Made by a program: the position numbers and the translations under genes | Shown: piece by piece, positions 12,392 through 51,675 of the stretch | How the letters are laid out: each line of letters starts with the position of its first letter | How positions within the stretch are numbered: the first letter of the stretch is position 1 | IMG/VR virus record: IMGVR_UViG_3300042197_003184 | Coordinates: 75,965 to 139,964 of that record | DNA from: a virus | Strand: one strand, 5' to 3' | DNA: 64,000 nt | Notes under the pieces: generated by a model | Database searches by the model: none | The model's input: the letters and a program-made list of their open reading frames with translations, nothing else | What the model was told of the DNA's origin: nothing

Positions 12392-12419
12392 ATCATAAAA
12401 CGCCGCGCACGGGTGTCAA
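12392..12419 (-). promoter_or_regulatory. Sigma70-like promoter for ssb
   Basis: TTGACA (12419-12414), 16-bp spacer, TATGAT (12397-12392). Confidence 0.65.
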
Positions 12420-14901: not shown

Positions 14902-14903
14902 AA

Positions 14904-32394: not shown

Positions 32395-33249
32395 TTATCT
32401 AACGTAAATTTCTACTCTCATACTTCTATTGTATCTTTGCGTCCCAGCGGTATTGTATTTATCTCCAGCAGAATAATTCACTCCATAGCTCATACCAATT
32501 CCACCACTAGCATCACAACTATTAGCGTCATTTTCACCATTCCACACAAATCCCCACCGAGCTGCTGCTGAACCAGCACCACTTACTCCATTATGTCCGC
32601 CAGAAGCCCCCTGAACATTAAAGCCATATTGTCTATATCCGTCTTGATAACTCCAAACATTACTATTAAAACCACCAAAATTAAATCCTGTGCCATAATA
32701 TGTAGTGGTTTGAAATAGATTTAATAATGTAGATGCTGTTGGCATGGTTTGTTTCCATATCCATCCATATGCTGGTGCATTTATACTACCACCTGTCACA
32801 TTTAAATCTGGCCATATAGCCATAACTTCAGTACCAACAAAAGTATTAAATATATGATATTTAGCATCAGCATCATTTCTGGTAACATCTGTTGCATTTA
32901 GTATGTTATTAGTAGTCCAATAATTTGCACTATAATTGAATGTTGTACCTCTCGTAGCTTTCATAGCCAACATCCATCCTCCTCCGTCTACCGCACTATC
33001 CATAATACAGTAAGTTGGGTTATTATTAATTATATAAGATCCATTGTCTGCTGATGGTATAATATTTTTAAGAGCAGAGGCACTATTCCAAGATGTTTCT
33101 GTTAAGTCCGTAAATCCTCCAGAATATGGAACTACACCAGTAACTGCTGTGGAATAATTTCCTGTGCCTATTGGGTTTACGGCTGCCACTTGGAATGAGT
33201 AGGACAAATCGTTAGTTAGTCCTGTAAGTAGTTTATTGAGTTTGGCCAT
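32395..33249 (-). CDS. Fibre protein F: FN3 C-half + fibrinogen-like domain
   Basis: Starts LTGLTNDLSYSFQVAAVN; YCIMD...GGWMLAMK; RBS AGGAG. Confidence 0.75.
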   Translation of the reverse strand: MAKLNKLLTGLTNDLSYSFQVAAVNPIGTGNYSTAVTGVVPYSGGFTDLTETSWNSASALKNIIPSADNGSYIINNNPTYCIMDSAVDGGGWMLAMKATRGTTFNYSANYWTTNNILNATDVTRNDADAKYHIFNTFVGTEVMAIWPDLNVTGGSINAPAYGWIWKQTMPTASTLLNLFQTTTYYGTGFNFGGFNSNVWSYQDGYRQYGFNVQGASGGHNGVSGAGSAAARWGFVWNGENDANSCDASGGIGMSYGVNYSAGDKYNTAGTQRYNRSMRVEIYVR

Positions 33250-33257
33250 ATATTCTC

Positions 33258-35138
33258 CTAGAATGTGATGCTCCCGCTGCCTGTGAACGTGTAGTATGTG
33301 TATCCGCCGCTCTCGGTGCGCGTTGGCGAGCCGGTTGTAGACGCAGCAGTCACGGAGCCAAGCGTTCGCAAAATCACAACGCCAGAACCGCCAGCGCCGC
33401 CGCTTCCAGCAACGCCACTGCTTGACCCACCACCACCGCCGCCCGTGTTAGCGATTCCAGCCGAACCGGGATTGTTGGGATTCCCATTTCCGCCGGCACC
33501 GCCTCCGCCGAGTCCGGCTGCGCCGACCGTGCCGCCGTCCCACAGACCCCCAGAGCCACCGCCCGCGTAGTAGGTTCCGTTGAGCCACTGCGACCCGTTG
33601 CCACCAGCGCCGGAGTACCCAGTATTAGATGCACCACTTGCAGCACCGCCAGCGGCACCTGCGCCACCACCGCCACCACCGTGTCCAGCGGTTGCGTCGG
33701 ACGAACCTGCGCCGCCGCTGTTGCCCTGTCCTGACGTGCCGGTGCCAGCCGTTGTGGGATTTGTTCCAGCCCCGCCACCACCGGAGCCTCCGGTGCCGCC
33801 AGCGTAGGTTTGCCCGGTGCTTATGCGAGTGCCGCCGCCACCACCGCCGGCCGATGTAACCGTGAAGGCCGATGAGTTGCTTCCAGCAACACCAGCGCCG
33901 CCGATGTTTACCCCGCCAGCGCCACCAGAACCGACCGTTACCGTGTATTGAGTACCGGCCGTCAACGTCGTTGAGCCAGACCGATACCCGCCAGCGCCGC
34001 CGCCACCGCCGTGCGAGCCGCCGCCACCGCCACCGCCTGCTATGACGAGGTATTCAACCGTAATGGATCCAGATGAAGAAACAATTAACGTTGCAACACT
34101 GCTAATGAGGCTCACTCCTCCTGTTGATTTGACTATACAACGATAAATTTCTCCATTATTATCAGCTTCAGTTAAATTTGATAAAGATAATGTACTGCTA
34201 GTGGCTCCAGAAATATTAGAAAAAGATGAATTGCCTTTCTTTTTCTGCCACTGATAACTTAGTGTTGCTCCTAATGTAACACTAGCGGTTATGCTAAATG
34301 AAGCATTTCCAGCACTAACAGTTTGATTAGATGGTTGAGAGCTTATGGTAATAATTGGAGAAACTGGGAATGGTACAGGTGATGGTGTGAAGTTGGATGA
34401 ATAACGGGCTATTCCTTTGGTTATTCTGATTTCGTCAATATATCCTGATAATAGATAGTTAGTATCATAATATCCTCCAACACAAAGATGTTGACCAGAA
34501 CAGTTGCCACTAGCTGTGCCAGAAGCTGCAAGATTACCATTGACAAATATTCTAATAATCCCAGACTGTCTACAGACCGCAATATGATACCACTGATTAG
34601 TATTGATCAACGATGCTGGTGTTGCGATGCTTGTTCCGGCAACATTTACTCTAAGAGCACCATTATTATAATTGATTATAATGCCGGTTGTATATGAGGT
34701 TGATAGTCCTCCGGACTGATTAGTGGTTTGGATCCAGCCTCTTTGGGTAGTAGAAGATACATCACTGGAATAAACCCAAGCTTCTACTGTAAAATCACCA
34801 GTATCAAAAGCAAAAGACGAACTACTAGCCGACAAATAATCTCCAGACCCATCAAAATAAGCCGAAGACCCACCGAACTTGCTCTGATCTGACGATTGAG
34901 TAGCATCCCCCGATACTGTTAACGTATGATTATACGACGAACTATCAACAAAAGAATTTCCAGTTCCGTCCATATGCATCAACAAACTCACATTACCAAA
35001 ATAAGGATCTGGTACTGGCATAGCAGTATATAATGTATTGTAAGCTCCTTGTCCAATACTATTAAGAGCAGCAACTCTAAAAATATAGTCGCCACTAGGA
35101 AGAGGAGAAATATTAGCTGTAGTATTAAGTGTTGTCAT
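33258..35138 (-). CDS. Fibre protein E: FN3 C-half + LamG + Ig-like + Gly-rich domain (start refined to 35138)
   Basis: TAATG coupling to gene D; DPYF..VSLLMH LamG; YQWQ Ig; VEYLVIAGGGGGG...FTGSGSITF. Confidence 0.78.
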   Translation of the reverse strand: MTTLNTTANISPLPSGDYIFRVAALNSIGQGAYNTLYTAMPVPDPYFGNVSLLMHMDGTGNSFVDSSSYNHTLTVSGDATQSSDQSKFGGSSAYFDGSGDYLSASSSSFAFDTGDFTVEAWVYSSDVSSTTQRGWIQTTNQSGGLSTSYTTGIIINYNNGALRVNVAGTSIATPASLINTNQWYHIAVCRQSGIIRIFVNGNLAASGTASGNCSGQHLCVGGYYDTNYLLSGYIDEIRITKGIARYSSNFTPSPVPFPVSPIITISSQPSNQTVSAGNASFSITASVTLGATLSYQWQKKKGNSSFSNISGATSSTLSLSNLTEADNNGEIYRCIVKSTGGVSLISSVATLIVSSSGSITVEYLVIAGGGGGGGSHGGGGGAGGYRSGSTTLTAGTQYTVTVGSGGAGGVNIGGAGVAGSNSSAFTVTSAGGGGGGTRISTGQTYAGGTGGSGGGGAGTNPTTAGTGTSGQGNSGGAGSSDATAGHGGGGGGAGAAGGAASGASNTGYSGAGGNGSQWLNGTYYAGGGSGGLWDGGTVGAAGLGGGGAGGNGNPNNPGSAGIANTGGGGGGSSSGVAGSGGAGGSGVVILRTLGSVTAASTTGSPTRTESGGYTYYTFTGSGSITF

Positions 35139-38100
35139 TATACTATACCCCATTTAGATATTAGATACGCTTCAACAAGGTCGGCTTCGGCGTCGCTGAT
35201 TTTGCTGTTATAGGCGACGATCTCGCAGATGTACCCGCTCCACGGATATTCATTGTTATAGGGGTATGCGCCGATCTGCGTCGGTTGGTTTGTTGTTGTA
35301 ATGCCAGAAACGTTAGTATCTGCCGTGCCGTCAACACCATTTAGGCCCACAAATCCGTTGTCGGCACCCAGCCTGAGCGCGGCTAGGAATGTCGTGTTTG
35401 CAGAAATACTGCCCTTCGTTGGCGCGCGAAGACTCGGGGTCCACCAATGCGTTTCAACATTAGACCCGTTGATGCGAAGAAACTGATGGGCGCGTGGGTT
35501 GACATTAGGGTTGTCCTTGTTCACCAGCAAACCAATGCTTGACGTGGATGTTTTTTGTGCGACAACAAACAGCGACACATGCCCAGACCCGTTTTCAATA
35601 TTGCCACTGAACTCCAGCCCGTCGTTACTGCCGTCAAAAAACAGCGCATCCTTAGCGCTGACGACGCCCGCCTTTCGCAGCGGCCGATTTGCACTCGTCC
35701 CCTGCGTCGCGTGCCGCCCGTTCCCCGACTTGTCCTCCCACCGCGCCACGCTGCCATCGGCTGCGACGAGACTGCCCCCACTAGTCGAATCATAGAGCGT
35801 AGAAGCATCACTACTATCTAGCCACAACTGCAATCCTGATATTGAGCTGGGACTAAATGTTGGGGGTGTTGGCGGCGTTTCAATATGAGAAGTCCAATTA
35901 TTTCCTCCATCATTACTATATTGTACTAAGTATCCAGTTATTGCTGGTAACACTAGTTCATTAGACCAATTTAATTGGACACCACTAACAGAAGTTTGGT
36001 TAATAGTAAAGTTTGGTGGAGGTGGAGGAACTTCTTGATAATCTATCCAATTATTACCACCGTCAGTAGAGTATCTAACATTATAAGAAATTGGCAATGA
36101 ACGACCATCATCCGCTGGACTGTCCCAAGTTAATAATGCTCTACTATCACCAGCAGCTCCTGTCAAGTTGTTGATGATTGAAGGCACAGTAGCCTCAGAA
36201 ATATTAGGAGTAGCAGAAATTATAGAGGTATAGCTACTTGAACCAACACTATTTACAGCTTTCATTCTGAAATAATATGTTGTTCCATTGGTTAGTCCCG
36301 TAACATAAATACCACTATTTGAAAATGCTAAAGTATCAGTAAAAGTAGTCCAATTAGTTTGATCAGTACTATATTCTATAGAATACGTTGTGCTAGATGG
36401 CAATCCACCGCTATTTCCTTTTGTCCAAGATAGTGCTACTAGCTGATCTCCTGGATCAGCAGCAAAATTAGTTACTGATGATGGGACTATAGCGGTAAAG
36501 TCTATGTAAAAATAATTATTGTAACCGTCTTGAACTACAGAATACTCGGATTCTGTTGTGGAACTTGACCCGTTAGTAATACCACTATACGGCCATAAGT
36601 CTTTTAATACTGTTCTAAAATATACTCTTCCACTCAGATCTACCAATGGAGTTAAATGATTATCAGTATTTCCGTATGATATATATTTAAGATTTATGTC
36701 GTTTGCAGAGTTTGTGTATGTCCATAATCCTTCGGCAGGATTTAATGAATATTGGAATTTTAGAGCCGTATCATTGCCTGTATACCAACTATTGTCTGGC
36801 GTTGGACCATATCCATTAGCGTATACACCTATATTAAGTCTTTCATTAGCATTAGCATACAAACCAAAATAAGATTTATTATTTATAGTTTCATATTGTC
36901 CGGTATGTCTATTATAATCATGATAGAACTCATAATTATAATAATTGTAACTTAGATTGACTAATCTAACAGCTGGTGTTACCACAGTTGTTGAGTATGC
37001 AGAAGTTACTACGCATCTTACAGGATCTTTTCCTGCTGGACTATTATAAGAATAGTTATTTGCAGCATTAAATGATTGAGTATTAATAGTTAAACTTGAT
37101 GATGTGGCACCATCAATATTTTGCCAACTTCTTCCATAGTCTCCATAATAGTTATTAATGTCTGTATCGTATTTTTGCCACTGATATGTTAATGCAGAAT
37201 TGTCCGGGATTGTCGCGGTAACAGTGAAAGTTGTGCTTTCATTATAGCTTATTACTCTATCGTTTTTCGGTGCTGAAGTTATTGTTAGTACTGGAGGAGG
37301 AGCAACCAGAGTCGAAGAGCTTGTTAGATAATTGCTATATCCTCCACTATTTTGTGCTCTAACTCTGAAGATATAATTTTTATTATTTGGCAAGTTAATT
37401 ACTCTAGCATTAGCAAATTCCGTACTGAACACAGCCGTAAATGCTTCTGTGTACAATGCCTCTCCAACGGTATATCTTAATTCGTCTAGTCTTCCTAGTA
37501 TATAGTTGTTTGGATTATGAGATGCTGATTCTCCTCCCATAATAACAAGACCTCCGGATGAGAAATTGTCATTATTAGTATCTGCTATTTCTAATATCTT
37601 TGCTCCTTCGAGGAAAATTCTCATTGTTCCATTATTGCGACAAAAGGCTAAGTGTATTGGTTTCTTATTGTATTGACCGACACCGTAATTATTTGTATTA
37701 CCTCTTAATGAACCAGATACATTGACACTATAAACGGAAGACCCATTAACATATTTATGAATTCTAACAGTATTCCAGTCAATATTTTGTATACCAAAAT
37801 ATGATCCAGATGAACCGTTGTGGGAGCCAAATAGTCTACCTATACCACCAACAGCATATGGTTCATCAAACATGACAAACATTTCAAGAGTGTAATTCCC
37901 TGTCCCGGGATTTAGATCACTAGAACTGTCAACTTTAACAATATAAGGAGAAGAGTATCCTGATGTTCTATTGTATTGTATGTCTAAACATCCTGTTCCA
38001 AATTTTTGATATGTACCAGCAGATGATGCTCCTCCAATGAATGCTGGATTGTTATTAGTATTCCAAAGAACATTTCTATTATAAAGAGAATAATCTTTAA

Positions 38101-39910
38101 CTTTAGCATTACCTCTAATATCCCCCTTATTAAAGTGGAGCAATAGTCTGGTTGGAGATGACGAAACCGATGTCCATGATTGGGGATCTGTATCTTCTGT
38201 ATATTGTAGATCATAAGATACTAATACTGATTTGTCGCTTGGAGGAGCAGAGAAGTCTATTTCTGCCGAAGCATCTCTACCATAAGCTGTTATACTAGGT
38301 GGAGCTTCTGGAGCAGTTATGGTTGGGGCTATATTTGAGAATGGTAGGGTTGGAGGTGTGAATATTGTGCCATCCGGATATCTGCATACTCCGCGAGTAA
38401 TACGAATATCATCTAGATAACCTGCATAAAATGCAGTGTTATGGTATCTTCCAATATTTAAAGGACCAGTACCAGTAGCTATTCTACCACTAGAAGATCT
38501 TGTTGTTATTTGAGTACCATTCTGATAAGTTCTTAAAGTATTGCCTTGTCGAACAACAGCATAATGAACCCAATTATTTAAACTAATAGCGCCCATATCC
38601 ATTTCGCTAGCAATATTCCAATTGTCATAGTTAGGATCTTGACAAAAATAAGCCCGAACTCTGTTATTAGCTGCATAGCCTATTAAAAATGGGTTATATC
38701 CTTGATCGGTATTTGTGCGACACATTACTGATCTACCACTAGTACTATCAGTTCTATATTCCCAATACTCTATTGTGAAATCTTCAGCACCAAAATCAAA
38801 TCCAGGATGATCCGGAATCGTCACATAGTCTCCACTACCATCAAAATACATACTTGATCCACCAAATTTATTTCGTGCAATACTGATTTTGGCATCGCCT
38901 TGAGCTGTGGAAGTTTTGGGTAAGTACGATGAGTCTACAATGTTTGTACTATTATGACTTTCGTCAAAATGCAATAACAGCGAAGTGCTGTAGAAATATG
39001 GGTCTGGGTTGGTGTCAACTGCTGGTTCTGCTGGAACTAGATTTGATTCGCTAACATATGAACCAATACCAGTATAATTAACAGCACCCACTCTAACGCT
39101 ATATGTTGTGCCGTTTGTGAGTCCCGTAACACTAATAGCAGGAACAACACTGGGAGAGTGAGCAAAATCCGTCCAGTTAGTGCCGTCTGTTGAATATTGG
39201 ATACTATAATCAGTTATTATTCCACCATTATCCTCAGCGGGTGCTGTCCAAATCATATTAATTTTTTGTACCAATGGACCAGCGATAAGCTCTGTTGGAG
39301 CATTGGGCGGGGTGACAGGAGTTCCAGTAGAAGGAAATGGAGCATGTAGTGTTTTGATATCAAAATTAGATGTATATTTGGCAGATCCTATGCCTTTGGT
39401 GATTCTGATTTCGTCCATAAAGCCACTAAAGGTTTCACTACCATTAGTACGTCCCCCAATGAATAATGACTTGCTTGCTCCTAGATCACCACCATTACTA
39501 ATAGACAATGATGCTGTACCATTAATAAAAACCTTAACGGTGCTGCCGCTTCTAACAAGAGCCAAATGACTCCAAGAGTTTAAAGGAACATTGCCAGGAT
39601 TCCAATTATATTGAGAGTTATTAATATATAGATTATCACCACCAGTACCCATTCTCCATAGTATACCGCTTGTATAAGATCCTATTTCAAATAATGTTCT
39701 CCAATTATTATTATCATAAGCGTAAACCCATAATTCTACTGTAAAATCACCGGTTCCGAAACCAAAATCAGTATTATCAGCAACTGAAGCATAAGCCCCA
39801 TTATTCAAGTATAAAGAAGCTCCACCAAATCGACTTCTTAGGGAGCTGATAGCTGCTCCATTATTTAGTGTGACGGTTTTAGGTTTTGGTGACGAATCTA
39901 TTATACTCAT
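35138..39910 (-). CDS. Fibre protein D: multiple LamG, FN3 and Ig-like domains
   Basis: Starts inside a LamG domain; contains two unpaired FN3 N-halves before a high-GC terminal LamG-like domain. Confidence 0.8.
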   Translation of the reverse strand: MSIIDSSPKPKTVTLNNGAAISSLRSRFGGASLYLNNGAYASVADNTDFGFGTGDFTVELWVYAYDNNNWRTLFEIGSYTSGILWRMGTGGDNLYINNSQYNWNPGNVPLNSWSHLALVRSGSTVKVFINGTASLSISNGGDLGASKSLFIGGRTNGSETFSGFMDEIRITKGIGSAKYTSNFDIKTLHAPFPSTGTPVTPPNAPTELIAGPLVQKINMIWTAPAEDNGGIITDYSIQYSTDGTNWTDFAHSPSVVPAISVTGLTNGTTYSVRVGAVNYTGIGSYVSESNLVPAEPAVDTNPDPYFYSTSLLLHFDESHNSTNIVDSSYLPKTSTAQGDAKISIARNKFGGSSMYFDGSGDYVTIPDHPGFDFGAEDFTIEYWEYRTDSTSGRSVMCRTNTDQGYNPFLIGYAANNRVRAYFCQDPNYDNWNIASEMDMGAISLNNWVHYAVVRQGNTLRTYQNGTQITTRSSSGRIATGTGPLNIGRYHNTAFYAGYLDDIRITRGVCRYPDGTIFTPPTLPFSNIAPTITAPEAPPSITAYGRDASAEIDFSAPPSDKSVLVSYDLQYTEDTDPQSWTSVSSSPTRLLLHFNKGDIRGNAKVKDYSLYNRNVLWNTNNNPAFIGGASSAGTYQKFGTGCLDIQYNRTSGYSSPYIVKVDSSSDLNPGTGNYTLEMFVMFDEPYAVGGIGRLFGSHNGSSGSYFGIQNIDWNTVRIHKYVNGSSVYSVNVSGSLRGNTNNYGVGQYNKKPIHLAFCRNNGTMRIFLEGAKILEIADTNNDNFSSGGLVIMGGESASHNPNNYILGRLDELRYTVGEALYTEAFTAVFSTEFANARVINLPNNKNYIFRVRAQNSGGYSNYLTSSSTLVAPPPVLTITSAPKNDRVISYNESTTFTVTATIPDNSALTYQWQKYDTDINNYYGDYGRSWQNIDGATSSSLTINTQSFNAANNYSYNSPAGKDPVRCVVTSAYSTTVVTPAVRLVNLSYNYYNYEFYHDYNRHTGQYETINNKSYFGLYANANERLNIGVYANGYGPTPDNSWYTGNDTALKFQYSLNPAEGLWTYTNSANDINLKYISYGNTDNHLTPLVDLSGRVYFRTVLKDLWPYSGITNGSSSTTESEYSVVQDGYNNYFYIDFTAIVPSSVTNFAADPGDQLVALSWTKGNSGGLPSSTTYSIEYSTDQTNWTTFTDTLAFSNSGIYVTGLTNGTTYYFRMKAVNSVGSSSYTSIISATPNISEATVPSIINNLTGAAGDSRALLTWDSPADDGRSLPISYNVRYSTDGGNNWIDYQEVPPPPPNFTINQTSVSGVQLNWSNELVLPAITGYLVQYSNDGGNNWTSHIETPPTPPTFSPSSISGLQLWLDSSDASTLYDSTSGGSLVAADGSVARWEDKSGNGRHATQGTSANRPLRKAGVVSAKDALFFDGSNDGLEFSGNIENGSGHVSLFVVAQKTSTSSIGLLVNKDNPNVNPRAHQFLRINGSNVETHWWTPSLRAPTKGSISANTTFLAALRLGADNGFVGLNGVDGTADTNVSGITTTNQPTQIGAYPYNNEYPWSGYICEIVAYNSKISDAEADLVEAYLISKWGIV

Positions 39911-39925
39911 TTTATTATGGCCCTA

Positions 39926-42900
39926 TTAATTTGAATCTAAATGTAATAGTAATCTTGTTTTGTTATATGTGTTGTCTTCTCTAAGAACCGTTAGTGTCGG
40001 AGAAACCGTTGAAACATAACTTCCTGTACCAGCTATATTAATCGCTGCTACCCTGAAAGAGTAGCTAGTACCAACAGTTAATCCGTCAACCACAATAGAT
40101 GTACTTATACTAGGACTATGAATATAGTCTGTCCATGTGCTTCCATTATCTGATGAATATTGTACGGAATAGTCTTTGATAGCCGAATTATTAGCTGTTG
40201 GAGCTGTCCAACTTAAATAAGCTCTATCGCTGTCTGGTATAACATTAAGGTTTGTTGGTGCTCCTAAAGTACTGATAGCGCTAGTGGTTGAAGAACTATA
40301 ATTACTAGCTCCTATAGCATTAACTGATCGTGCTCTAAAAGTATATGGAGTACCAATTGTGGATAGTCCGGTTATTCTATTAGCAGGGGCCTGTGGTAGT
40401 GATCTTGGGTCAAAATTACTTGTATATCTTGCTACCCCTTTAGTGATTCGTATATCGTTCATGTGTCCATAAAAATATTCATTTCCAGCAGGCCAGCCAC
40501 CAACATACACCTTACGATTAGTATTATAGACAGTATCTGCAACAAAATTTAATACCGAAATACCATTAAGATACAGAGTTATGATTCTGCCACTACGCAC
40601 AACAGCAACATGATTCCAAACATTAGCATACGGTACGGCACTGCTTTCTTGTTGACCGCCAGTTACGGCGGTATAAAAAGATAGCACACCAGTACTCTGT
40701 CTCAAATATAGCTGCCAGTCTCCGTCCGTGCCTTCGCTTCCACCATTACCTCGTTTACTTATGACGGTATTGTATTTACTCCAATCTCCTGTTGGCCTTA
40801 TCCAACCCTCTATAGTCCAGTCTTGATTACGCAAATCAAAAGCCGAGTTATTTTCTATTACTAAATTATCATTAGATCCATCAAATACTACGCTACCATT
40901 ACTAAACCACCCTTGAGATGTAGTAATTTTTGTATCTCCAACAATACTAACATTATGATTGTGTTTTGAATCATCAATAATATCAAAAGAGTTATTGGTT
41001 CCCGTCATTGGTAACAATAATGATACCTTGTCATAATAAGGATCAGAAACTACTGACAAGTTATTCCATGTTGATCCGTCTTCCGAATACTGAAAATTAT
41101 AAGCCGTTATAGGAGAACGACCATCGTTTGTTGGTGGAGTCAAGGACACTTTAAAGATATTGTCTCTTTCGGTAACAGCTAATCCGCTAGGAGATGATGG
41201 TGCTGTTGGGGCAGGACCAAGGTTTGGTGCGGGGGCTGCTGGTTTTGTAAAGCTTGAGGTGTATCTTGATATTCCTTTGGTTATTCTAAGGTCGTCAATA
41301 TATCCTTTATAATTATCTGTTATAGAGTTACTAGATGATCGACTAGCTCCTACTGTTAGACCGTTGGAGTTGATTCTGTTTATGTTATCTGTAAATGGTC
41401 CTTGGTTTGGAAATGAACTGCTGGGTGGAGTAAAATTAGAAGTATAGCGAGCTATACCTTTAGTGATACGAATCTCATCAATAAAGCCACCACCCCACGA
41501 CGGATAACCAGAACTTCGTCGTCCTGCAACATCTCCAATCCACAAAGCCTGACCATTCAAATTAGCATTGCCAATATCAGCTGGGGTTCCGGCCACGCCA
41601 TTAACCCATATGGTTGCGATACTACCGCTTCTGGTCATAGCAATATGAGTCCATTGACCAACAGCCAAGCCAGTAGAATGAGAAGCGTAACTTGCTGTGA
41701 CAGCGAAATATGTGGACATACCATTCGTACCTCCTGCCAAAACCCAAGGACTGCCCACTGCCGAAGAACGAAAATCCATAATGTTTCTAGAATCGAACCC
41801 AACATCAAGATAAATCCATGCCTCTATCGTAAAATCGCTCGTTCCTAGTTGTAGATCCGAGTCGCTGGCAACAGAGATAGCTCCGTCTGTACCAAGGCTT
41901 AGACTAGTTGCTCCAAACTTGCTTTGTGCTGTCGAAAGTTTAGCAGTTCCATGGACAGAGATGGCTCTTGTGTCAAGACTGGAGTCTGTTAAAGAAATAG
42001 CTTCATCGACCCCATCCATATGCAACAATAACGACACATTACTATAGTATGGGTCTACTGCGGATGTTCCTAGTTCGTTGCCGTCTAAGAATAGCTTCAA
42101 ACTATCGCTAGAACGACTGGCGGCTAAATGATACCATGTTCCAGAAGCTAATGGAGGAGATACTTCTTTTTCTACTATTGTAGTATTGCCATTTCGGAAT
42201 TGTACGATAGAAGAATTTACTGTGCAGCCCAGTATCTCTTTACGTGTGTACGAGAAAGCTCCTCCACCACCACTTTGCCAGCTCGTAAACTTAATTGCCC
42301 AATATCTATTGGTGGGTACATGCTTCATTATGAGTTCTTTACCAACCATCTCTGGAGTAGAATAACAGCTTCTTACAATGCCATAGTCTCTCCAATTACC
42401 ATATGTTCGTGTGGTGTAATTACAAATATTGGTCCAGTTATTAGCATCTTCAACGCAACAATTATAATTATCTGATTGATATTGTCTACATCTATTCCAA
42501 ACAGTATTAGCAGGAGAAGAACTCTGACTATAACCACCTTCTATAGCACTATTATATATACCTTGCCCATCTCCTCGTGTAATTTCCAAAACGCCAGGAA
42601 TAATCACATCCACTTCATTACCATAGTTTGTTGCAGTAAAGGAGACCTCTGGTCCGTAATTGACCGTGCCACCAGTAGACGGCGAGCCTACTGCTAATCT
42701 CCAACCCCCATCAGCTCCATCATAATTACCAACAATAGCTTTGGTGCCATTCATATCATCTGGATTGATCCAAGCTTCTACGGTAAAGTCATCTGTACCT
42801 AATTGCCAAGCCTTATCTCCTGGAACGCTCAGATAAGAATTGCCGTCGAAATATGCGCTAGTTCCACCAAATTTACTTTGTGCCGAACTAATAACAACAG

Positions 42901-43483: not shown

Positions 43484-43495
43484 TATAATCTTTCC

Positions 43496-43858: not shown

Positions 43859-43871
43859 TTTATTCTCCTTC

Positions 43872-46800
43872 TTAGAATGTTATAGAACCTGTTCCTGTGA
43901 AAATATAAAGTTTACCACCGTCACTGTTAGAATCAGGGAATTGGGAATCCGGTACGCTTATAGAGGATCCTGTATAATTCCTGCCACTGCCGATAGTAAA
44001 TCTTACATCATCTATATAGTAGTTGGGTGATGACCAGCCATAACCAGTAAAATCAAAATTTGCTCCTATAAACCCATACGGTAAACTAGCTAGATTATAG
44101 TTGTTGTTATCTGTGGTACTATCCACTAGTATTCCGTCCACATAGGTTCTAGTAGTACCAGATGTGCGAGCAATAGCAATATAAACCCATTGAGATAAAG
44201 GCAGGGTAGCGATCCATTGTCTACCATTAGATGGTAAATTTAAAGATAGTCTTCTGCTCTGATCTATTTCTACATTAAATCCTGTGACACCCGGATATCG
44301 AAAATCGAAAAGAGCACTATTATCAGATTGAGACCCAGCAATAAATACCCAGCTTTCCAGTGTGAAATCTTGAGTTCCTATGTTAGACATAGAGCCTATT
44401 CTTAAATAAGATCCATTACCTAATAATGCTGCGCTTTTACCTCCCCATTTAGATTGAGTCGATGACTGTGTAGCAGAACCGAATGCCGTAATAGTCTTTG
44501 GATTTGGTGAGACATCTGTAAATACTGATGCATTGTCGTTCATATGTAATAATATTGATACATCTTTAAAATAAAGATCACTAGCTGGACTAATAATAGG
44601 GGATCCGGTTGTTGATGTTGCTGCTACAGAAGATTTGATTACTACTACGCCAGAGGCACCTGAGCCAGCAGCGTTGTTGCCGGAACCTCCAGCGCCTCCA
44701 CCTCCGCCGGTATTTGCGACGGCTGCTGTTCCGGTACTTCCGGCTCCTCCTGTGCCGCCACCCCCACTACCGCCAGAACCAGCCGTTGCGCTGCCGGTAT
44801 TGGTACCTCCACCACCACCACCTGCGTATGTTGTTCCGTACCACGACCTACCATTGCCTCCAGAACCACCTACAGAGCTGGTTCCATTGCTGCCAGCCGT
44901 CTCTGCCCCGCCACCGCCACCTCCTCCATATGCTGGGGAATTATAGTTTGACGATCCCCCGTTATTTCCGTATCCTATAAATGGTCCGGAACTGGTTTGT
45001 GTAGCGGTGCCGCCAACAGATCCTTCGTTATTTGATCCTCCGCCAGAACCTCCGTTTTTGCCGTTGGCATTAGGAGAACATCCGCCACCACCACCACCAT
45101 TCGCCGTATGACCAGCAAACGTAGAATCAGATCCGGTATTGCCAGCATTGCTGGATACTGCTGTTCCACCAGCACCAACAGAAACAATGTAGGTTTCTCC
45201 CACAGTAAGAGATAAAGCAGTAGCTTCTAACAAACCTCCAGCGCCGCCGCCACCGCCTCCACCATTACCAGAACCGCCAGCGCCGCCTCCTGCCACAACT
45301 AAGGCTTCAACAGAAACGTCTGGAATTGGTAGAGTTACTGACTTAGCTTTCCAACCTCCTTGGCCATTACTATTAATGGCCGCCACTCTAAAATAGTAGT
45401 TTCCATCAGCTAGTCCAGAAATTGTAACACTATTGGTGCTAGATGTTCCGTCGTTTACGGTAGTCCAATTAGATTCGTTTTCTGTACGGTATTGAATCAC
45501 ATAATCAGTAGCTCCGTCTATAGAGTCCCATGATAGGGTCGCCTCTCCTGGAGTGCTAGAGCTGGCAGTTATATTGGTTGGAGGAGTAGGGGGAGATGCT
45601 GATGGAAAAGTTATGGATCCAGTACCAGTAAACATATAAATATTGTATAAACCATCAGCTGATACTGTTGGGCTTCCTGTTGTTGAAGTTGCGGTGGCTT
45701 TTGTTCTTAGAATAACAGCACCAGAACCTCCAGTTCCTCCATAGTTATTAGAATTGTAATGAGAGCCTCCACCACCACCTCCTCCAGTATTAGCTCCACC
45801 ATTTCCACCAGGAGTATTAGTTTGAGAATTTGTACTACCTCCACCTCCAGATGCTCCATTATTTATGCCAGCTCCACCAACCGTTGTACCAACAGCCCCG
45901 CCACCTCCACCACCAATACCTCCGTCTCCTCCGGTAGTAGTATAACCAGAACCACCGCCGCCACCTGCCCAGTAATAAAGAGTTCCTAATATTCTGCTAA
46001 GTACTCCAGGACCGCCGTGGCCTCTTACGCTACCATTTCCAATACCAGCACCTCCGGCTCCACCACCGCCACCAGGATACCAGTGTGGTCCGCTGCCAGC
46101 ACCATCATATCCTTGTTTGGCAGTACCGCTTCCAGGCAAGCCACCATAACTACTACCGTTTTGACGACCACCTGATCCACCACCACCACAACCTCCACTA
46201 TTTGCATTCCATCCGTTACCGTTATGTTGACTAGCCCCGTAACCTCCGCCTAGTGCTGTAACCAGAGCGTTGCCTATTACGGAAATAATACTGTTACCTC
46301 CATTGGTGCCTGACCCACCACTACCAGCAGGTGCTCCAGACCCACCAGCACCCACAACCACATTCAGAGTACTAACATTTGCTAAATACATAGGAGATTC
46401 TGCTGTTGATCCTCCGCCAGAAGTTGCTCCCTCAACGTTGGTGATCAAACCACCGGCACCACCGCCACCACCCATATCGTTACCTCCGCCTCCTCCACCA
46501 GCGACCACTAGATATTCAACAGAAATTCCTGTTAATGGCAGAGCTAGATCTATAGAAGTCCAAGAACTTTGTAGATCTCCATTGGTACCAGCTATTCTAA
46601 AAGTATATGTTCCATTGGGTAAATTATTGATAGTGGTACTATTATTAGATGATACTCCGTCATTAACGGTTGTCCAAACTATTCCTCCGTCTGTGCTGTA
46701 CTGAATAATATAGTCTGATGCTCCTGGAGGTAGTGTGGGTGCTGTCCAAGACAGCGTTAACGACCCACTTTGTGGTTGAGATGGTACAATATTAGTTGGT

Positions 46801-47801
46801 GCAGGTAGCGGGCCTGAGTACGTTGATGTTGAGGGGCCGTTAATGGCATAAATAGTTTTGGGGTTAGGAGACAAATCTCTAAAAGGATTAGAAGGATTAG
46901 GATATGCCGAAGTGGGTAATGTAATATTACGAGCAACACCGTTGGTGAATCTGAATTCATCTATCTGACCATCAAAACCACCAACACTAGCCACCCTACC
47001 AACACTAAATCCATTCTGATTAAAATTAGTAGAAGAGAAAATAGTACTATTACTTACTGTTTGTTCTACTCCATCAATAAATATTTTTATAGTACCGCTT
47101 TGTCTAAGTATGGCTAAGTGATACCACGTATTTGTTGAAGCAGACCACGGGGAGGTGCAATAATTACTCGTGGCGTGTTGTCCAACCATCAGATTACCAG
47201 AACTATACTGAATATACCATTTGCCACCATCTGCACCATTAGGGTCTGATGTTGGATTACAAATAGGGTTTGCACTATTGATAGATCTAAACTTAACAAA
47301 TAACTCAACAGTAAAATCTCCTGTCCCAACACTAAAATCATTAGACGAATCAAAAGTTAGATAATTAGACCCATTAAAAGATAAAGAGCCTGTGCCAAAT
47401 CTACTGTCGGATATTGTTTGAACTGGTACGGCCCCGTTAGTATAAACATTTTTGTTACCAAGAGAAGAGTCTGTTAAAGCTATACCATCGCCATGTAATA
47501 ACAATTTTGTTTCTAAAGAATAGGGATCATCATTAGGACCGTATTGAGTTGTTCCCAGGATAAAAGCATCATTGCCATAATATGAGTCTCCATTAATTAC
47601 CTCATCCATATTTAGCAATAATTCTACATTATGATAATTGTCGTCTATAGCAAATAAAGACGGCGTTGCTAATACATAGTCTGTAAATGGGCCAACGCCT
47701 ATAGAATTTACTGCTGCTACTCTAACTCGATAAGTAACATCGTTAGTTAAGCCGGTAATAGTGTAACTTCTATTAGCACTATTGGTATTAATAGTTGGCA
47801 T
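43872..47801 (-). CDS. Fibre protein B: FN3 C-half, nested LamG, two FN3, two Gly-rich domains
   Basis: Starts YTITGLTNDVTYRVRVAAVN; V(E/D).LVVAGGG...FTGTGSITF domains; one LamG inserted inside the last Gly-rich domain. Confidence 0.8.
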   Translation of the reverse strand: MPTINTNSANRSYTITGLTNDVTYRVRVAAVNSIGVGPFTDYVLATPSLFAIDDNYHNVELLLNMDEVINGDSYYGNDAFILGTTQYGPNDDPYSLETKLLLHGDGIALTDSSLGNKNVYTNGAVPVQTISDSRFGTGSLSFNGSNYLTFDSSNDFSVGTGDFTVELFVKFRSINSANPICNPTSDPNGADGGKWYIQYSSGNLMVGQHATSNYCTSPWSASTNTWYHLAILRQSGTIKIFIDGVEQTVSNSTIFSSTNFNQNGFSVGRVASVGGFDGQIDEFRFTNGVARNITLPTSAYPNPSNPFRDLSPNPKTIYAINGPSTSTYSGPLPAPTNIVPSQPQSGSLTLSWTAPTLPPGASDYIIQYSTDGGIVWTTVNDGVSSNNSTTINNLPNGTYTFRIAGTNGDLQSSWTSIDLALPLTGISVEYLVVAGGGGGGNDMGGGGGAGGLITNVEGATSGGGSTAESPMYLANVSTLNVVVGAGGSGAPAGSGGSGTNGGNSIISVIGNALVTALGGGYGASQHNGNGWNANSGGCGGGGSGGRQNGSSYGGLPGSGTAKQGYDGAGSGPHWYPGGGGGAGGAGIGNGSVRGHGGPGVLSRILGTLYYWAGGGGGSGYTTTGGDGGIGGGGGGAVGTTVGGAGINNGASGGGGSTNSQTNTPGGNGGANTGGGGGGGSHYNSNNYGGTGGSGAVILRTKATATSTTGSPTVSADGLYNIYMFTGTGSITFPSASPPTPPTNITASSSTPGEATLSWDSIDGATDYVIQYRTENESNWTTVNDGTSSTNSVTISGLADGNYYFRVAAINSNGQGGWKAKSVTLPIPDVSVEALVVAGGGAGGSGNGGGGGGGAGGLLEATALSLTVGETYIVSVGAGGTAVSSNAGNTGSDSTFAGHTANGGGGGGCSPNANGKNGGSGGGSNNEGSVGGTATQTSSGPFIGYGNNGGSSNYNSPAYGGGGGGGAETAGSNGTSSVGGSGGNGRSWYGTTYAGGGGGGTNTGSATAGSGGSGGGGTGGAGSTGTAAVANTGGGGGAGGSGNNAAGSGASGVVVIKSSVAATSTTGSPIISPASDLYFKDVSILLHMNDNASVFTDVSPNPKTITAFGSATQSSTQSKWGGKSAALLGNGSYLRIGSMSNIGTQDFTLESWVFIAGSQSDNSALFDFRYPGVTGFNVEIDQSRRLSLNLPSNGRQWIATLPLSQWVYIAIARTSGTTRTYVDGILVDSTTDNNNYNLASLPYGFIGANFDFTGYGWSSPNYYIDDVRFTIGSGRNYTGSSISVPDSQFPDSNSDGGKLYIFTGTGSITF

Positions 47802-47856
47802 ATTTATCCTAAAAAGAAAGCGTATGACTAAACTTAGTTATTTATGCATACACCTT

Positions 47857-48714
47857 TTATGATATTAACTGCGGAGTTTGTGGAATTCTAGTAGTAATTT
47901 GACCATAATCAATATAGCTTTTTTCTGCTAATCCACTAGATCGGTGTCCTAGGTGAAATTTAGCCATACCCGGCTGGTTTATTTCTATATGGGTAGCTCC
48001 GCTACGTCTTAAGAATTTACTGGAGCCTTTTATATTGCAGAATTTAAGAAAATCATACATAATAATTTGAGCCCTTCTTTTACCACACAACCATCCTAAT
48101 ATTCTATTGTCGTCAGAAGATTTGTATGATAATAATTCATTAATACTATCTACGCAAGCGGAGCTTAAGACCTTAGTCATAGGATCGCCAGTTTTGCTCA
48201 TGGTCCAGCGTAATATGTTGTTATCAATATGGTCTATTGTAAAAGTTAATAAGTCTCCAAAACGAGCACCACTTTCATAACCTAATAATAACCATGCTCT
48301 AATAAAACATCCTAATGGAACTCCTTTTTTACTAATTTTATCAAATTCATAACTTTTATCTATCAACATTTTACACTCATCAATCGTCCAAGCTTTTGTT
48401 GGGGCTTTTCTAGCTTTAATAGACACAATATTTTTGGGAGCAAATTTTACCAAATTATTTTCATAAGCATAATTCCATAAGGTTAACAAAATGGTACGCT
48501 CTGATTTAACAGTAATAGAACTAGCTTTAGTTAGACGATCTTTTAAATAGTTATTAACAACATCTTTTAAGATATATTTACATCTTTTAGCAATTCTATA
48601 AACATTGCTCTCATATTCTTTAGACACTATATGATTATTCATATAATGCTTAACAATACTAACAAAAGTTACATTCTTAGTTTTAGTCTTGGTCTTGGTC
48701 CTGGTCTTAGTCAT
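47857..48714 (-). CDS. Tyrosine recombinase/integrase
   Basis: Catalytic set: R (GARFGDL), K (MSKTG), K-F-L-R in place of HxxR, H (LGH), Y (KSYID); perfect SD AAGGAGG. Confidence 0.85.
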   Translation of the reverse strand: MTKTRTKTKTKTKNVTFVSIVKHYMNNHIVSKEYESNVYRIAKRCKYILKDVVNNYLKDRLTKASSITVKSERTILLTLWNYAYENNLVKFAPKNIVSIKARKAPTKAWTIDECKMLIDKSYEFDKISKKGVPLGCFIRAWLLLGYESGARFGDLLTFTIDHIDNNILRWTMSKTGDPMTKVLSSACVDSINELLSYKSSDDNRILGWLCGKRRAQIIMYDFLKFCNIKGSSKFLRRSGATHIEINQPGMAKFHLGHRSSGLAEKSYIDYGQITTRIPQTPQLIS

Positions 48715-48722
48715 ATTAATAT

Positions 48723-48784
48723 CCTCCTTAGAGGTATTATAAGACTTTGTAACGAATAGTCAGCAACGCTTTTATTATTCGTTA
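48723..48784 (-). promoter_or_regulatory. Recombinase leader: SD, -10 box and 9-bp inverted repeat
   Basis: AAGGAGG 48723-48729; TATAAT 48736-48741; taacgaata 48750-48758 and tattcgtta 48776-48784. Confidence 0.5.
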
Positions 48785-48802
48785 TCTTTGTCGTATAGCG
48801 CA

Positions 48803-49813
48803 CTAGGCGCCAGGGAACGCTTCCGTGGGCGGCGTGAACGTCGTGCCGTTGGGATAGCGACACGCGGCAGTGAGTCGCACATCGTCAAAGCTATGGGTCT
48901 GCCACAGAACCAGATTGGACATCGCAATATTTGTGAACTCACCAGAGTGTATCTGCTGACCGTTGTAATACCACCTGCCGGTGCTGCCCTGTCGCACGAA
49001 CGCAAAGTGATACCACTGTCCGTTCGTTGCGGCGGAGGTGGACACGTATCCGCCATCAAAGTTTTCCACTTGGAAACCACTGGTCGTTACTTGTAACTCA
49101 AGAAACAGCCCGGAGCCTATATTGCCCAGCAAAACCGCCCTGTTGCCGACGCCGCCGTTGAATTTTTTGACCCAGAACTCCAACGTGAAATCTGTGGACG
49201 CCGGAGCCGTGACTCCGTAGGTAAGTTGAGTGTTTGAAGAGAGAGTTGCCGCATTTCCAAATTTACCTGCGGCATACGAGATATTGCTGTAACCCAGATT
49301 GGTATATGACGGCAGGCGACTGTCTGGCCCAATGTCGTTCGGAGTATTGTCAAATGGAACGAGCAGCAGAACGTCTCCCCACAGAGGGTCGCCGGGCGAA
49401 ACGGTCAGCGTGGCGCTGCTGCTCGTCACGCTCTCGGCACCACCCGTTGCGCTGACCACCACTCGGTACACATCGCCGTCGTCATCGGCGTGCGTCAGGC
49501 CGGACAGCGCGAGAGTGCTACTTGTCGCGCCGCCCACGTTAGTGAACGAACCAGAACCGCTTTCTTGCTTCTGCCACTGGTAAGACAGGGTGGCATTTTG
49601 CGTGACCGTCGCCGAAACGCTAAACGCGGCACTGCCGCTAGAGGCTGTTTGATTGCCGGGCTGGCTGGTGATGGTGATAGCCGGTGCCACTGGCCACGCT
49701 GCCGCCCGTTTCTGCCGCTCGGCCGTCCGCAAGTCCCAGATGCCGCTGGCGACACTCGTCGTCGGCCCATCCGGTCGCGGCCCGATGTACGAACCGTTCG
49801 CTCGCAGACTCAT
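48803..49813 (-). CDS. High-GC Ig-like + LamG fibre protein
   Basis: N-terminal G.YIG...ASGIW.L...WP motif, YQWQ Ig, DFTLEFW and FDDVRLT LamG motifs. Confidence 0.78.
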   Translation of the reverse strand: MSLRANGSYIGPRPDGPTTSVASGIWDLRTAERQKRAAAWPVAPAITITSQPGNQTASSGSAAFSVSATVTQNATLSYQWQKQESGSGSFTNVGGATSSTLALSGLTHADDDGDVYRVVVSATGGAESVTSSSATLTVSPGDPLWGDVLLLVPFDNTPNDIGPDSRLPSYTNLGYSNISYAAGKFGNAATLSSNTQLTYGVTAPASTDFTLEFWVKKFNGGVGNRAVLLGNIGSGLFLELQVTTSGFQVENFDGGYVSTSAATNGQWYHFAFVRQGSTGRWYYNGQQIHSGEFTNIAMSNLVLWQTHSFDDVRLTAACRYPNGTTFTPPTEAFPGA

Positions 49814-50271
49814 TCCGCACCTCCCGCGCTCAACGCCGCCCGAGCCGCACCATACGCGAGCATCAGCGGCTCAAACTCCGCGAACGTCATGGTGTGCCGC
49901 TCGCCCGCCATGTCGGTGACGATGACCGGCTGCGACACGCCCAACTCGGCCGCCCGAGCCGCCAGCACATAGAGGCCGGTGAGCAACGCCACGTCGTCAG
50001 GCTGCCACGCGAGCCGCCAGCCGCCTGGCGTCTCCCAGCCTGCCTCAAACGGCGACGGCTCCGGTGGTGGAGGCGGTGGGGGAAACAGGGCGTCTAGGTC
50101 GTCCTGCGTCAGCGTGGACGCGGCCCAGCCGGTCGCCTCCAGCACTGCGGCATCCAGCGACCACTGCGCCGGGTCGGTGCGGGTGCTGCCATCAGGCATC
50201 CGCACCCGGAAGGGCAAGGCCAGGGCGGCTACGCCGTTACGTCGCCAGCAGGGATCGCCGAGAGCAGGCAT
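49810..50271 (-). CDS. High-GC putative fibre assembly/chaperone protein
   Basis: 153 aa; ATGA-coupled to 48803-49813; high-GC codon usage. Confidence 0.6.
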   Translation of the reverse strand: MPALGDPCWRRNGVAALALPFRVRMPDGSTRTDPAQWSLDAAVLEATGWAASTLTQDDLDALFPPPPPPPEPSPFEAGWETPGGWRLAWQPDDVALLTGLYVLAARAAELGVSQPVIVTDMAGERHTMTFAEFEPLMLAYGAARAALSAGGAE

Positions 50272-50350
50272 GGAAGTTCTCTATTGTTGTGAGGTAATGT
50301 ACTATCAAACTTATACGGTGATAGTGTCCGTTAATTTTTATACACCAGAA

Positions 50351-50716
50351 TCAAGAGATCTCTTCATACACTATTATAGCGCTAACATCTCCACTAGCGC
50401 TGCATTGTAGATACAACGAATCTCCTTCCATCATGTATATGTTGCTATCTTTAGTTAGAGGTAGTAAACTAGCGTCTGCTGGAACACTAACGGTTTTAGC
50501 TAAATAGCCCGTATTATTTTGAGCATTTGTCATATAGACACTTATATCAGCAGCATTAGCTCCATCAATATTTGAACAATAAATACTACTAAGTCTTAGT
50601 GTTTTGCCACTATCTGCCGAATTGGTAAGGTATGATGTTGCTGATGCGGGAACATCTGAAACCAAAACATTTTTTCCTTCTACTTTAATTGGATTATTTA
50701 AATTTGGTATGGCCAT
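50351..50716 (-). CDS. Small phage virion/adaptor-like protein
   Basis: MA.PN...SNIDG.NAAD...VSVPADA.L...IY..E...YEEIS pattern, familiar from phage fibre cassettes. Confidence 0.6.
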   Translation of the reverse strand: MAIPNLNNPIKVEGKNVLVSDVPASATSYLTNSADSGKTLRLSSIYCSNIDGANAADISVYMTNAQNNTGYLAKTVSVPADASLLPLTKDSNIYMMEGDSLYLQCSASGDVSAIIVYEEIS

Positions 50717-50769
50717 GATTTTCTCCAGACTTTAGATATAAGATTGATAACTATATATACACATTTTAT

Positions 50770-51675
50770 TTAATGCCAGCTATATATTTTGTTTTTATCA
50801 TATAGTACAGATTGAACCACTACAAATGACCCGGAACTTGGGGTTACCGAAGGTGTTACGGTATTTGTTGGGGTAACTGTTGGTGTGGGGGTGTTTGTAG
50901 GGGTTTGTGTTGGGGTTGGTGTGGGGGTAGGCGTTGGCGTAGCACTAGGATTCATCTCATAATCAACAACATAATCAATAATATCTAAACGACCATTACT
51001 AGCTGGAGAATTCCAAGATAATAGTATTTCTTGATTACCTCCATAGGCCGATAGATTTTGTGGTGCGCTTGGCGCCCCGTATCTTGTAGAGGACGGAGTA
51101 ACAGTTTGTGTGGGTGTTTTTGTTGGTGTTGGTGAACGAGTTGGAGTAACTGTTGGAGTGGGAGATCGAGTCGGGGTAACTGTTGGTGTTGCGGTAGGTG
51201 TTGGGGTAGCAGTTGGAGTGCCTGTGGGCGTTGGAGTAGCACTTAAAGCAAGGTCTCCGCTAACAATCCAGGTGTTATTGCTAATCTTTGACAATACGGC
51301 CTTACTATATACTGCTCGTAAAGTCCACCCAGAAGCAGAATTAATAACTATACCTTCTGCTCCAGTCACATTAACAATACCCTGACCTAATCTAACCAAT
51401 TCTACAGTTGTGCCTACTGGTAGAGACTGATTAGTATCGTTCGGAATAGTAACCAATACCGGTTCCGTATTGGTAAATGTTACTATGGATTTAGCATCAG
51501 TTTGAACCAGATTATAATCGGTAGTTGTGGTGTTTTTAACGCTCTTTAAACTAATCCAATCTGATAATTGTTCTAAACTAATTTTATAGGTAGAATTAAT
51601 GCTACTAATAGGAAATATGTAACTTCCTGATACTACCGGGGCTGGTTGTAGTTCACTAATTCTAATATTGGCCAT
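50770..51675 (-). CDS. Fibre protein A: anchor-like domains + PT linker + FN3 N-half + PT linker
   Basis: MANIRISEL; Y.L...D....V.F...IP.D....P.G...W...GDL; PSAPQNL...LSW.SP...DY.V.Y. Confidence 0.75.

Follow-up and report, generated by a model that had tools for sequence, protein, structure and literature searches.

How does a virus use proteins that begin and end in the middle of a domain? The question is raised by a fibre-like locus in a 139,964-bp virus contig (IMG/VR record IMGVR_UViG_3300042197_003184), whose final 64 kb (64,000 nucleotides, positions 75,965 to 139,964 of the record) form the window analysed here. The fibre genes all lie on the minus strand and are transcribed in the order A, a window-specific island, B, o120, C, D, E, F, o89 and o376 (Table 1), and genes B to F open with the later part of a fibronectin type III (FN3) or laminin G (LamG) domain whose first part is encoded in an earlier gene. 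We consider it likely that the two parts of each divided domain fold together, and that the split domains would act as the non-covalent connectors and branch points of one multi-chain, branched fibre. Searches with Pfam found fn3, Laminin_G_3, Gly_rich_2 and Ig-like domains in B to E, and at the start of F only the C-terminal piece of an fn3 domain. The anchor of A matches phrog_8780 ('minor tail protein') and PHROGs annotated 'tail fiber protein', and the LamG units match PHROGs annotated 'baseplate wedge subunit' and 'virion structural protein', which points indirectly to a tail fibre or receptor-binding protein as the product of the locus.

We located the FN3 pieces with the Pfam fn3 profile (PF00041, 84 positions) and with a hidden Markov model (HMM) built from the five intact FN3 domains of the locus. 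On the Pfam profile, residues 202–244 of A match positions 1–39 and residues 1–47 of B match positions 42–80; two pieces in D match 5–41 and 2–42, the N-terminus of F matches 53–83, and that of E matches the C-terminal part of the Y_Y_Y model, which is related to fn3. The locus HMM identifies five N-halves (A 202–244, C 762–808, D 534–586, D 1243–1295 and D 1295–1348) and five C-halves (B 5–47, C 1032–1067, D 832–870, E 8–48 and F 8–37), with model positions of 2–43 for A, 2–53 and 2–55 for the outer and inner N-halves near the end of D, 54–95 for E and 61–90 for F. Overall the N-halves span model positions 2–55 and the C-halves 51–95, and all breaks fall at positions 43–55, in the C'-E loop. 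Two of the pairs are intramolecular, one in C and one in D, and have a complete LamG domain between the halves; the other three cross from gene to gene, and the order of the halves along the locus is ()()()(()). At the joints no single chain matches the full fn3 profile, which the cognate pairs cover jointly.

A first-pass annotation, made from the letters of the window alone, had placed complementary FN3 halves in A and B and two tandem N-halves in D answered by C-halves at the starts of E and F; the profile searches recovered all of these, and the half-matches are complementary and non-overlapping, as the annotation had implied. It had also argued that FN3 subtypes support the pairing independently, with the inner N-half and E resembling the intact domains of B and the outer N-half and F those of C and D. 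This held clearly for F, whose C-half shares 16 of 29 residues with FN3 domains of the C/D type against 6–10 of 28 with the others, and modestly for E (16 of 39 identities with the B type against 11–13 of 39, plus a one-residue deletion common to E and the B type). The inner N-half of D has the B-type gap, and identity does not discriminate its subtype.

The LamG domains are divided by the same logic. An HMM of 219 positions, built from six intact LamG copies in the locus, matches the start of C only from model position 56 (56–213), the next LamG of C in three pieces (23–106, 120–162 and 167–217) and the start of D only from position 23. The missing strands were located in B (residues 52–70, 70–89 and 304–333) and at the C-terminus of C. 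When the pieces are joined in silico in bracket order they give full-length LamG matches of 161, 127 and 163 bits (161 and 127 for the two domains completed in C, and 163 for the C tail plus D, vs 142 for D alone), and the joined domains cover LamG positions 2 or 3 to 212–216, as expected of members of Laminin_G_3 (PF13385). Three LamG domains therefore open in one gene and close in a later one, in the order first described: B opens LamG-A and then LamG-B, C closes LamG-B and then LamG-A, and a further LamG begun at the end of C is continued by D. Moreover, the same FN3 loop and the same LamG loop host in-frame inserted domains within C and D, which suggests that the halves are built to re-associate around an interruption.

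Is the arrangement peculiar to this contig? A search of IMG/VR with A led to a complete phage genome of 237,915 bp with terminal repeats (G001), whose locus is collinear (A1, B1, o126, C1, D1, F1, o89) at 52–80% identity and shares the A–B FN3 split, the B–C LamG split and the C–D junction. D is 68% identical to its counterpart D1 over residues 1–1291, and D1 ends directly after the outer FN3 N-half while F1 begins with the C-half, so that the D–F split is there a simple one. Two ENA scaffolds (L069 and L070) have the same layout as G001, and A orthologues in these three are 63–67% identical to A. The splits are conserved at 55–88% amino-acid identity across G001, L069, L070, L072, L073, L074 and L075, which come from independent samples and pipelines (IMG/VR, ENA GROS21 and three Logan runs), and at least 16 distinct B-like proteins start with M[TP]TINTNS..RSYTITG at the same FN3 position. 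Since the same half-matches recur at the same positions in eight other loci, chance is excluded as their source. The bracket order is balanced in the window and in the relatives scanned.

These recurrences bear on the simplest objection, that the window is an artefact of metagenome assembly in which repeated FN3, LamG and Gly-rich modules were joined chimerically. The contig is indeed metagenomic, rich in repeated modules and marked by abrupt shifts in GC content. Against this, the same stops, restarts and half-domains are found in independent assemblies, and joins between repeats would be in register rather than leave a half-domain, a stop and a start. We give this explanation next to no credence, and the stops, several of whose restarts the first-pass annotation had taken for real genes, are not assembly errors.

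Outside the closest relatives, an otherwise unrelated GC-rich phage contig with its own integrase (L077, positions 3–2577) encodes an FN3 N-half, an Ig domain, an end domain and a stop, and its next gene opens with an FN3 C-half; with the same N-half and C-half layout present there, the arrangement is not confined to one phage family. An additional split LamG lies in the more distant L072 (4513–9973), where a 747-residue structural protein upstream ends with the first-strand motif of LamG (...HSNISLLASFSDES..., terminating in ...HSNISLLASFSDESVTSS) and the next protein, of 1065 residues, matches the LamG model from position 26 at its start and has as its last element the FN3 N-half ahead of the B-like gene; this joint replaces the A-type anchor. 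Among GenBank phages, megablast with the locus gave no match and tblastn with D or the polymerase only distant domain-level matches, and these nearly empty searches indicate that there is no cultured close relative. A scan of IMG/VR with F returned only its tip domain in other architectures, and one with D nothing useful.

Are the chains nevertheless made as one? Every restart has a ribosome-binding site or TAATG coupling, in agreement with what had been reported from the letters: AGGA precedes B, AAGGAAAG precedes C, TAATG joins D to E, and TAGGAGAAT precedes F. C ends in RLLLHLDSN and D begins SIIDSS after its start codon, both in frame, and the same in-frame layout with two or three stops is present in G001, L069, L070, L072, L073 and L074 (in G001 the junction reads TAA TAG GGT AAT AAT AAA ATG). 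Covalent joining by readthrough, by frameshifting or hopping, or by RNA or protein splicing would draw on the shared frame of C and D in all seven genomes, with spacers that are multiples of three, and on the position of F in L069 and L070, only 2 nucleotides after the D stop and in the −1 frame, which is open upstream. We nevertheless regard it as very improbable: the C–D spacer holds two or three stops, the A–B spacers measure 27–50 nucleotides in relatives and 3 kb in the window, the Pfam matches include no intein or intron signatures, and each restart has its own ribosome-binding site. No suppressor tRNA was found in the genome and all three stop codons are in normal use, on which grounds we rejected stop-codon recoding; the separate chains of the first-pass annotation were in this respect upheld.

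How, then, did the splits arise? B and C form one gene in L072 and L073, which are more distant, and a 1530-residue protein (P0013) aligns to residues 1–325 of B and then directly to residues 5–1185 of C; P0021 is likewise a B–C fusion. Because these proteins carry B and C as a continuous gene, LamG-B is, judged from the alignments, a single domain, split in the window lineage by a cassette comprising the FN3/Gly-rich branch, o120 and a restart. An unsplit orthologue together with inserted DNA that brings a stop and a restart, the mark of genes in pieces, is thus found for B–C and not for C–D, where the split involves no extra DNA and looks like fission in place, in the loop after the first strand. 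There is no mobility gene at the domain breaks; o120 has no Pfam match, and the only mobility gene is the integrase in the A–B island. C itself varies as well, its counterpart in G001 being without the in-frame nested LamG of residues 476–695.

Insertion could also mean decay. If the splits were merely scars of cassette insertion, only the upstream piece would be on the virion, and the downstream genes would be independent or decaying. GC-rich foreign modules and the integrase island show that DNA has been inserted in the locus, and comparison with the fused P0013 places an inserted cassette at the B–C split. Weighed against these points are the intact open reading frames (ORFs) of 631–1590 residues, the retention of the splits in at least eight assemblies at 55–88% identity, the C–D split, which consists only of stops, a ribosome-binding site and a start, and the lack, by Pfam and PHROG profile matches, of any other anchor domain in B to F. 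Selection on the halves points the same way. The ratio of nonsynonymous to synonymous substitution rates (dN/dS; Nei-Gojobori, against five relatives) is rough, with synonymous divergence (dS) saturated (>1) in most comparisons, and comes to 0.035–0.063 for the B C-half, 0.02–0.05 for the C-terminal strand of C, 0.17–0.30 for the A N-half, 0.12–0.18 for the outer N-half of D (closer relatives), 0.16–0.17 for its inner N-half, 0.20–0.36 for the E C-half and 0.07–0.09 for the F C-half (against L074 and L075). For the intact FN3 and LamG domains it is 0.07–0.29 in most comparisons and ~0.67 for the last intact FN3 of D against L069 and L070. Across the half-domains the ratio spans 0.02–0.36, not above that of the intact ones. 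The orphan halves are under purifying, not relaxed, selection, as the first-pass annotation required, and two of them (the B C-half and the C-terminal strand, at 0.02–0.06) are among the most constrained parts of the locus. We judge the scar explanation improbable.

The behaviour of the D–F joint is informative about what the halves may do. F and its G001 counterpart F1 share only residues 1–48, the half-FN3 (69% identity), and their tips differ: the tip is a phrog_1325 domain in the window and L069, and a Gly-rich domain in G001, L070, L074 and L075. In L069 and L070 the last ~200 residues of D and the N-terminus of F switch type together. A constant half-FN3, differing tips and co-divergence of D and F are what a conserved connector with exchangeable cargo should show. 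The joint also exists in two states. In L074 and L075, from two Logan runs, D carries, as in the window, the outer N-half followed by the inner one, and E and F answer at their N-termini with the inner and the outer C-half, respectively; D stops there directly after the inner N-half. Five E-like proteins (P0062–64, P0074 and P0081) open with the inner C-half. Compared with the simple D–F joint of G001, L069 and L070, the nested D–E–F form has the module 'inner N-half, stop, E' placed exactly in the existing joint. The relatives thus hold both fused (B+C) and differently nested versions, which the annotation had proposed to look for, and the step from simple to nested would be arm addition by cassette insertion, seen happening.

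From these patterns a more general scheme can be drawn, on which we are evenly divided: that environmental phages share a connector system in which a half-FN3 or strand-less LamG of a given type has its complement as sole partner, in which the order and nesting of the halves would specify the order and branching of the fibre, and in which arms could be added by inserting an 'N-half ... stop, restart, C-half' cassette into a joint.

Do the halves in fact meet their cognate neighbours? We predicted the complex of the A N-half with the B C-half from paired six-genome alignments in three runs, with unrelated partners as controls. The interaction prediction score from aligned errors (ipSAE) was 0.52 in all three runs vs 0.00 for the best control, which the tool rates as 'weak support'; of 80 solved complexes 58 reach the mark that this passes, as do 2 of 110 mismatched pairs, and scores of 0.60 or lower comprise only 7 of the 80 solved complexes plus both of the passing mismatches. 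The runs agree in at least 94% of contacts, and the predicted local distance difference test (pLDDT) of the partners is at least 74, compared with 39–46 for each half with an unrelated protein. The A–B pairing foreseen in the first-pass annotation is thus weakly supported by prediction, and the pass may reflect likeness to known structures, FN3 being a well-solved fold. Single-chain AlphaFold2 models were of low confidence: the C–D read-through (stops as Q, six-row alignment) had a mean pLDDT of 62.8 with the junction below 50, and the fused nested LamG of P0013 a mean of 56.5 with its N-terminal strands at ~25–30, the alignment being too shallow in both cases. When several B rows were included, MAFFT misplaced the C rows.

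These results must be set against the serious remaining alternative, non-cognate docking, in which the halves are conserved docking pieces that do not pair with the cognate neighbour; they may add strands to intact FN3 or LamG domains, swap among copies or bind a baseplate protein, and the bracket order would record the history of insertion. Nesting is exactly what successive DNA insertions would leave, the complex support for cognate pairing is weak and comes from the A/B pair vs unrelated controls, and identity alone does not clearly place the inner N-half in E's subtype. Cognate pairing is favoured by the balance of N- and C-halves in every locus scanned, each half being followed by its complement, by the joint switch of both D–F halves in L069 and L070, and by the prediction that each half is ordered only with its partner. 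We consider docking of this kind unlikely.

If the halves co-fold, the locus would encode one multi-chain, branched tail fibre or adhesin, with gene products joined by beta-sandwiches divided between two polypeptides. At an FN3 joint, cut in the C'-E loop, strands A to C' would be supplied by the upstream protein and strands E to G would form the N-terminus of the next; at a LamG joint the jelly roll would receive its first strand, or its first three, from the upstream protein. Close gene spacing and translational coupling would deliver both halves together. Branching would follow from the anatomy, since the chains of A, B and D continue beyond the half-domain into further domains of their own, and the branched fibre of the first-pass annotation gains support from this layout. 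Each such continuation would be a side branch (the tail of A, the FN3/Gly-rich/LamG arm of B, the inner half and end module of D), and a chain that stops at its half-domain, as C does, would merely extend the fibre. The half-domains would then be conserved connectors behind which distal modules are exchanged.

Several observations count against co-folding, in addition to the saturated dS. The annotation had treated A and B as neighbours, which they are in the relatives (27–50 nucleotides apart) and are not in the window, where the 3-kb integrase island intervenes and A and B are consequently not translationally coupled. The A-like protein of L073 opens with a strand-less LamG for which no strand donor is obvious upstream. 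In B, conservation is only 56–60% for the N-terminal strands of LamG-A and LamG-B, and only 40–50% for the LamG-B piece with strands 2 and 3. The GC-rich pieces of the window, finally, are known from metagenomic assembly alone.

The scheme resembles several known systems and differs from all of them. In the donor-strand complementation and exchange of chaperone-usher and type V pili, an incomplete Ig-like beta-sandwich is completed by a strand of the next subunit, and the assembly is non-covalent and very stable. The C–D joint, with a LamG strand at the C-terminus of C, would work on the same principle, and the sequence anatomy fits an incomplete fold completed by its neighbour, with the A/B ipSAE of 0.52 weak and the single-chain folds of low confidence. 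In the pili, however, all subunits have one kind of incomplete fold and a periplasmic chaperone and an usher catalyse exchange, whereas here FN3 and LamG folds are used, FN3 is cut roughly in half (three to four strands each), the joints are heterologous, ordered by the operon and nestable, and the donor chain may branch. No chaperone or usher family is among the Pfam or PHROG matches of the locus.

Genes in pieces are known from large phages, in the split NrdA of Aeromonas phage Aeh1 and the T4 topoisomerase gp39/gp60, where inserted DNA brings a stop and a restart and the products reassemble non-covalently. The B–C split compared with the fused P0013 is of this kind, and the window also holds a split DnaE-type polymerase. 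The Aeh1 and T4 cases, however, are splits of single enzymes with homing-endonuclease genes as the cause, and no homing endonuclease was seen in the locus; here the splits lie inside small structural domains, form several joints, are nested, would add branches and would serve as connectors for module exchange. Branched receptor-binding complexes offer a third comparison. In CBA120, G7C and Klebsiella phages with dual receptor-binding proteins (RBPs), neighbouring RBPs are joined via conserved N-terminal adapters and distal domains are swapped. Conserved N-terminal adapter parts and exchanged distal domains are common to both, but in the known cases the adapter is an entire, dedicated docking domain on a trimeric spike, whereas the adapter here would be a half-domain that folds only with both chains. 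Engineered fragment complementation (split monobody, split GFP, SpyTag/SpyCatcher) shows that an FN3 severed in a loop can be rebuilt with high affinity from its two fragments; those fragments are laboratory constructs, and this locus would be a natural, conserved use of the principle.

We found no published account of split FN3 or LamG domains, fragment or strand complementation, or gene fission in phage tail fibres, with literature coverage incomplete and novelty not proven. If the halves co-fold, they would offer a natural route to long, branched, modular adhesins without dedicated docking domains, and a new assembly principle for the host-recognition organs of phages. Such a principle would explain how binding modules are gained and swapped, by recombination at constant half-domain connectors, and would give protein engineers a natural set of split-domain connectors, perhaps orthogonal to one another, which could also serve to re-target phages in laboratory strains. 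It also matters for annotation: proteins that start with a half FN3 or a strand-less LamG are common in metagenomic phage data and are otherwise taken as truncated or mis-called.

Table 1 Features of the fibre locus and of the other window genes mentioned, in window coordinates (aa, amino acids; PT, Pro/Thr; GC, guanine plus cytosine content)
Feature	Position	Strand	Description
Gene A	50770–51675	−	301 aa; anchor aa 1–145, PT linker, orphan FN3 N-half aa 202–244 (50944–51072), second PT linker, 20-aa tail
A–B island	47857–50716	−	o121, o153, o336 and integrase-like gene; window-specific
o121	50351–50716	−	
o153	49810–50271	−	GC 0.71
o336	48803–49813	−	Ig and LamG; GC 0.59
Integrase-like gene	47857–48714	−	Tyrosine integrase-like; GC 0.32 (native); Pfam Phage_integrase; phrog_1 integrase (E 3.6e-16)
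Gene B	43872–47801	−	1309 aa; FN3 C-half aa 1–47 (47661–47801), LamG-A first strand aa 52–70, LamG-B first strand aa 70–89, intact LamG aa 90–304, LamG-B strands 2–3 aa 304–333 (end 46803); branch of FN3, Gly_rich_2, FN3, Gly_rich_2, LamG
o120	43496–43858	−	Between B and C; phrog_7759 (E 2.4e-46), function unknown
Gene C	39926–43483	−	1185 aa; rest of LamG-B aa 1–173; rest of LamG-A aa 179–260, 427–472 and 700–755, around an inserted domain and an in-frame nested LamG aa 476–695; FN3 aa 762–808 and 1032–1067 with LamG inside; intact FN3 aa 1073–1165
Gene C end	39929–39970	−	C-terminus, first LamG strand, ...YNKTRLLLHLDSN
C–D junction	39908–39928	−	TAA TAG GGC CAT AAT AAA ATG; in frame, two stops, AGG(G) motif, start codon
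Gene D	35138–39910	−	1590 aa; LamG without first strand aa 2–191, then more FN3 and LamG units
D outer FN3 N-half	~36026–36184	−	aa 1243–1295
D inner FN3 N-half	~35867–36028	−	aa 1295–1348
D end module	35138–35860	−	aa 1351–1590; GC-rich, LamG-like
Gene E	33258–35153	−	631 aa, or 626 aa from the TAATG start at 35138; inner FN3 C-half aa 8–48, intact LamG, Ig-like domain, GC-rich Gly_rich_2 module aa 351–631
Gene F	32395–33249	−	284 aa; outer FN3 C-half aa 1–40, tip domain aa 52–284 (phrog_1325)
o89	32112–32381	−	Follows the last fibre gene in all relatives; conserved
o376	30980–32110	−	Anchor and tip domain in a single unsplit chain
Polymerase, first part	14904–16772	−	DnaE-type DNA polymerase III alpha (whole 12416–16772): PHP and NTPase gene
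Exonuclease	14034–14729		RNase_T/DEDD gene between the polymerase halves
Polymerase, second part	12416–14041	−	Finger, HHH and OB gene
tRNA-Pro(AGG)	2930–3010		Sole tRNA gene in the 140-kb contig

The island between A and B is missing from all relatives. A GGTGTAT...TAAGTTT motif stands on either side of the block of o153, o336 and the integrase-like gene (~50340 and ~47850), and GGTGTAT is also found in the A–B spacer of most relatives (in G001 and L069, and in degenerate form in L073 and L072); it may be a late promoter or an attachment site. We rejected the idea that the integrase made the splits in the manner of an integron or shufflon: the modules are all on one strand, no relative has an integrase here, and no repeated recombination sites were seen at the breaks.

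Three GC-rich pieces (o153 with o336, residues 1351–1590 of D and residues 351–631 of E) have GC contents at third codon positions (GC3) of 0.5–0.86 in an AT-rich locus with GC3 of ~0.2–0.3, and inside the ORFs of D (at 35138–35860) and E (at 33258–34103) GC3 leaps from ~0.2 to 0.5–0.7. At these places the relatives are without o153 and o336 and without the D end module, and the composition suggests that the pieces are modules taken up from GC-rich phages, in D and E in frame. A comparable LamG-like module, terminating in ...INKWGIA, ends E rather than D in L075.

The small gene o120 is 79% identical to o126 of G001, occupies the same place in L069 and L070, and is missing where B and C are fused (L072 and L073). 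Genes of its type follow Gly-rich genes ending in ...GSITF in several loci, not in all (including L070, 21614–21982), and o120 is possibly an assembly factor carried along with the Gly-rich cassette. A derivation of the F start codon from the start of an o120-like gene, considered in view of similar junction sequences, was dropped, simple conservation being the better account given the homologous E–F junction in L074.

The anchor of o376 is 33% identical to that of A (E 9e-23) and its tip 63% identical to that of F; o376 looks like a minimal, paralogous form of the assembly that runs from A to F. At its position G001, L069 and L070 carry a protein of ~590 residues (anchor, LamG and a LamG-like module), and L075 a 376-residue counterpart. 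The fibre proteins carry long Pro/Thr linkers, and the one tRNA gene of the contig is for proline. With the divided polymerase, which has an exonuclease gene between its halves, the genome holds a second case of a gene in pieces.

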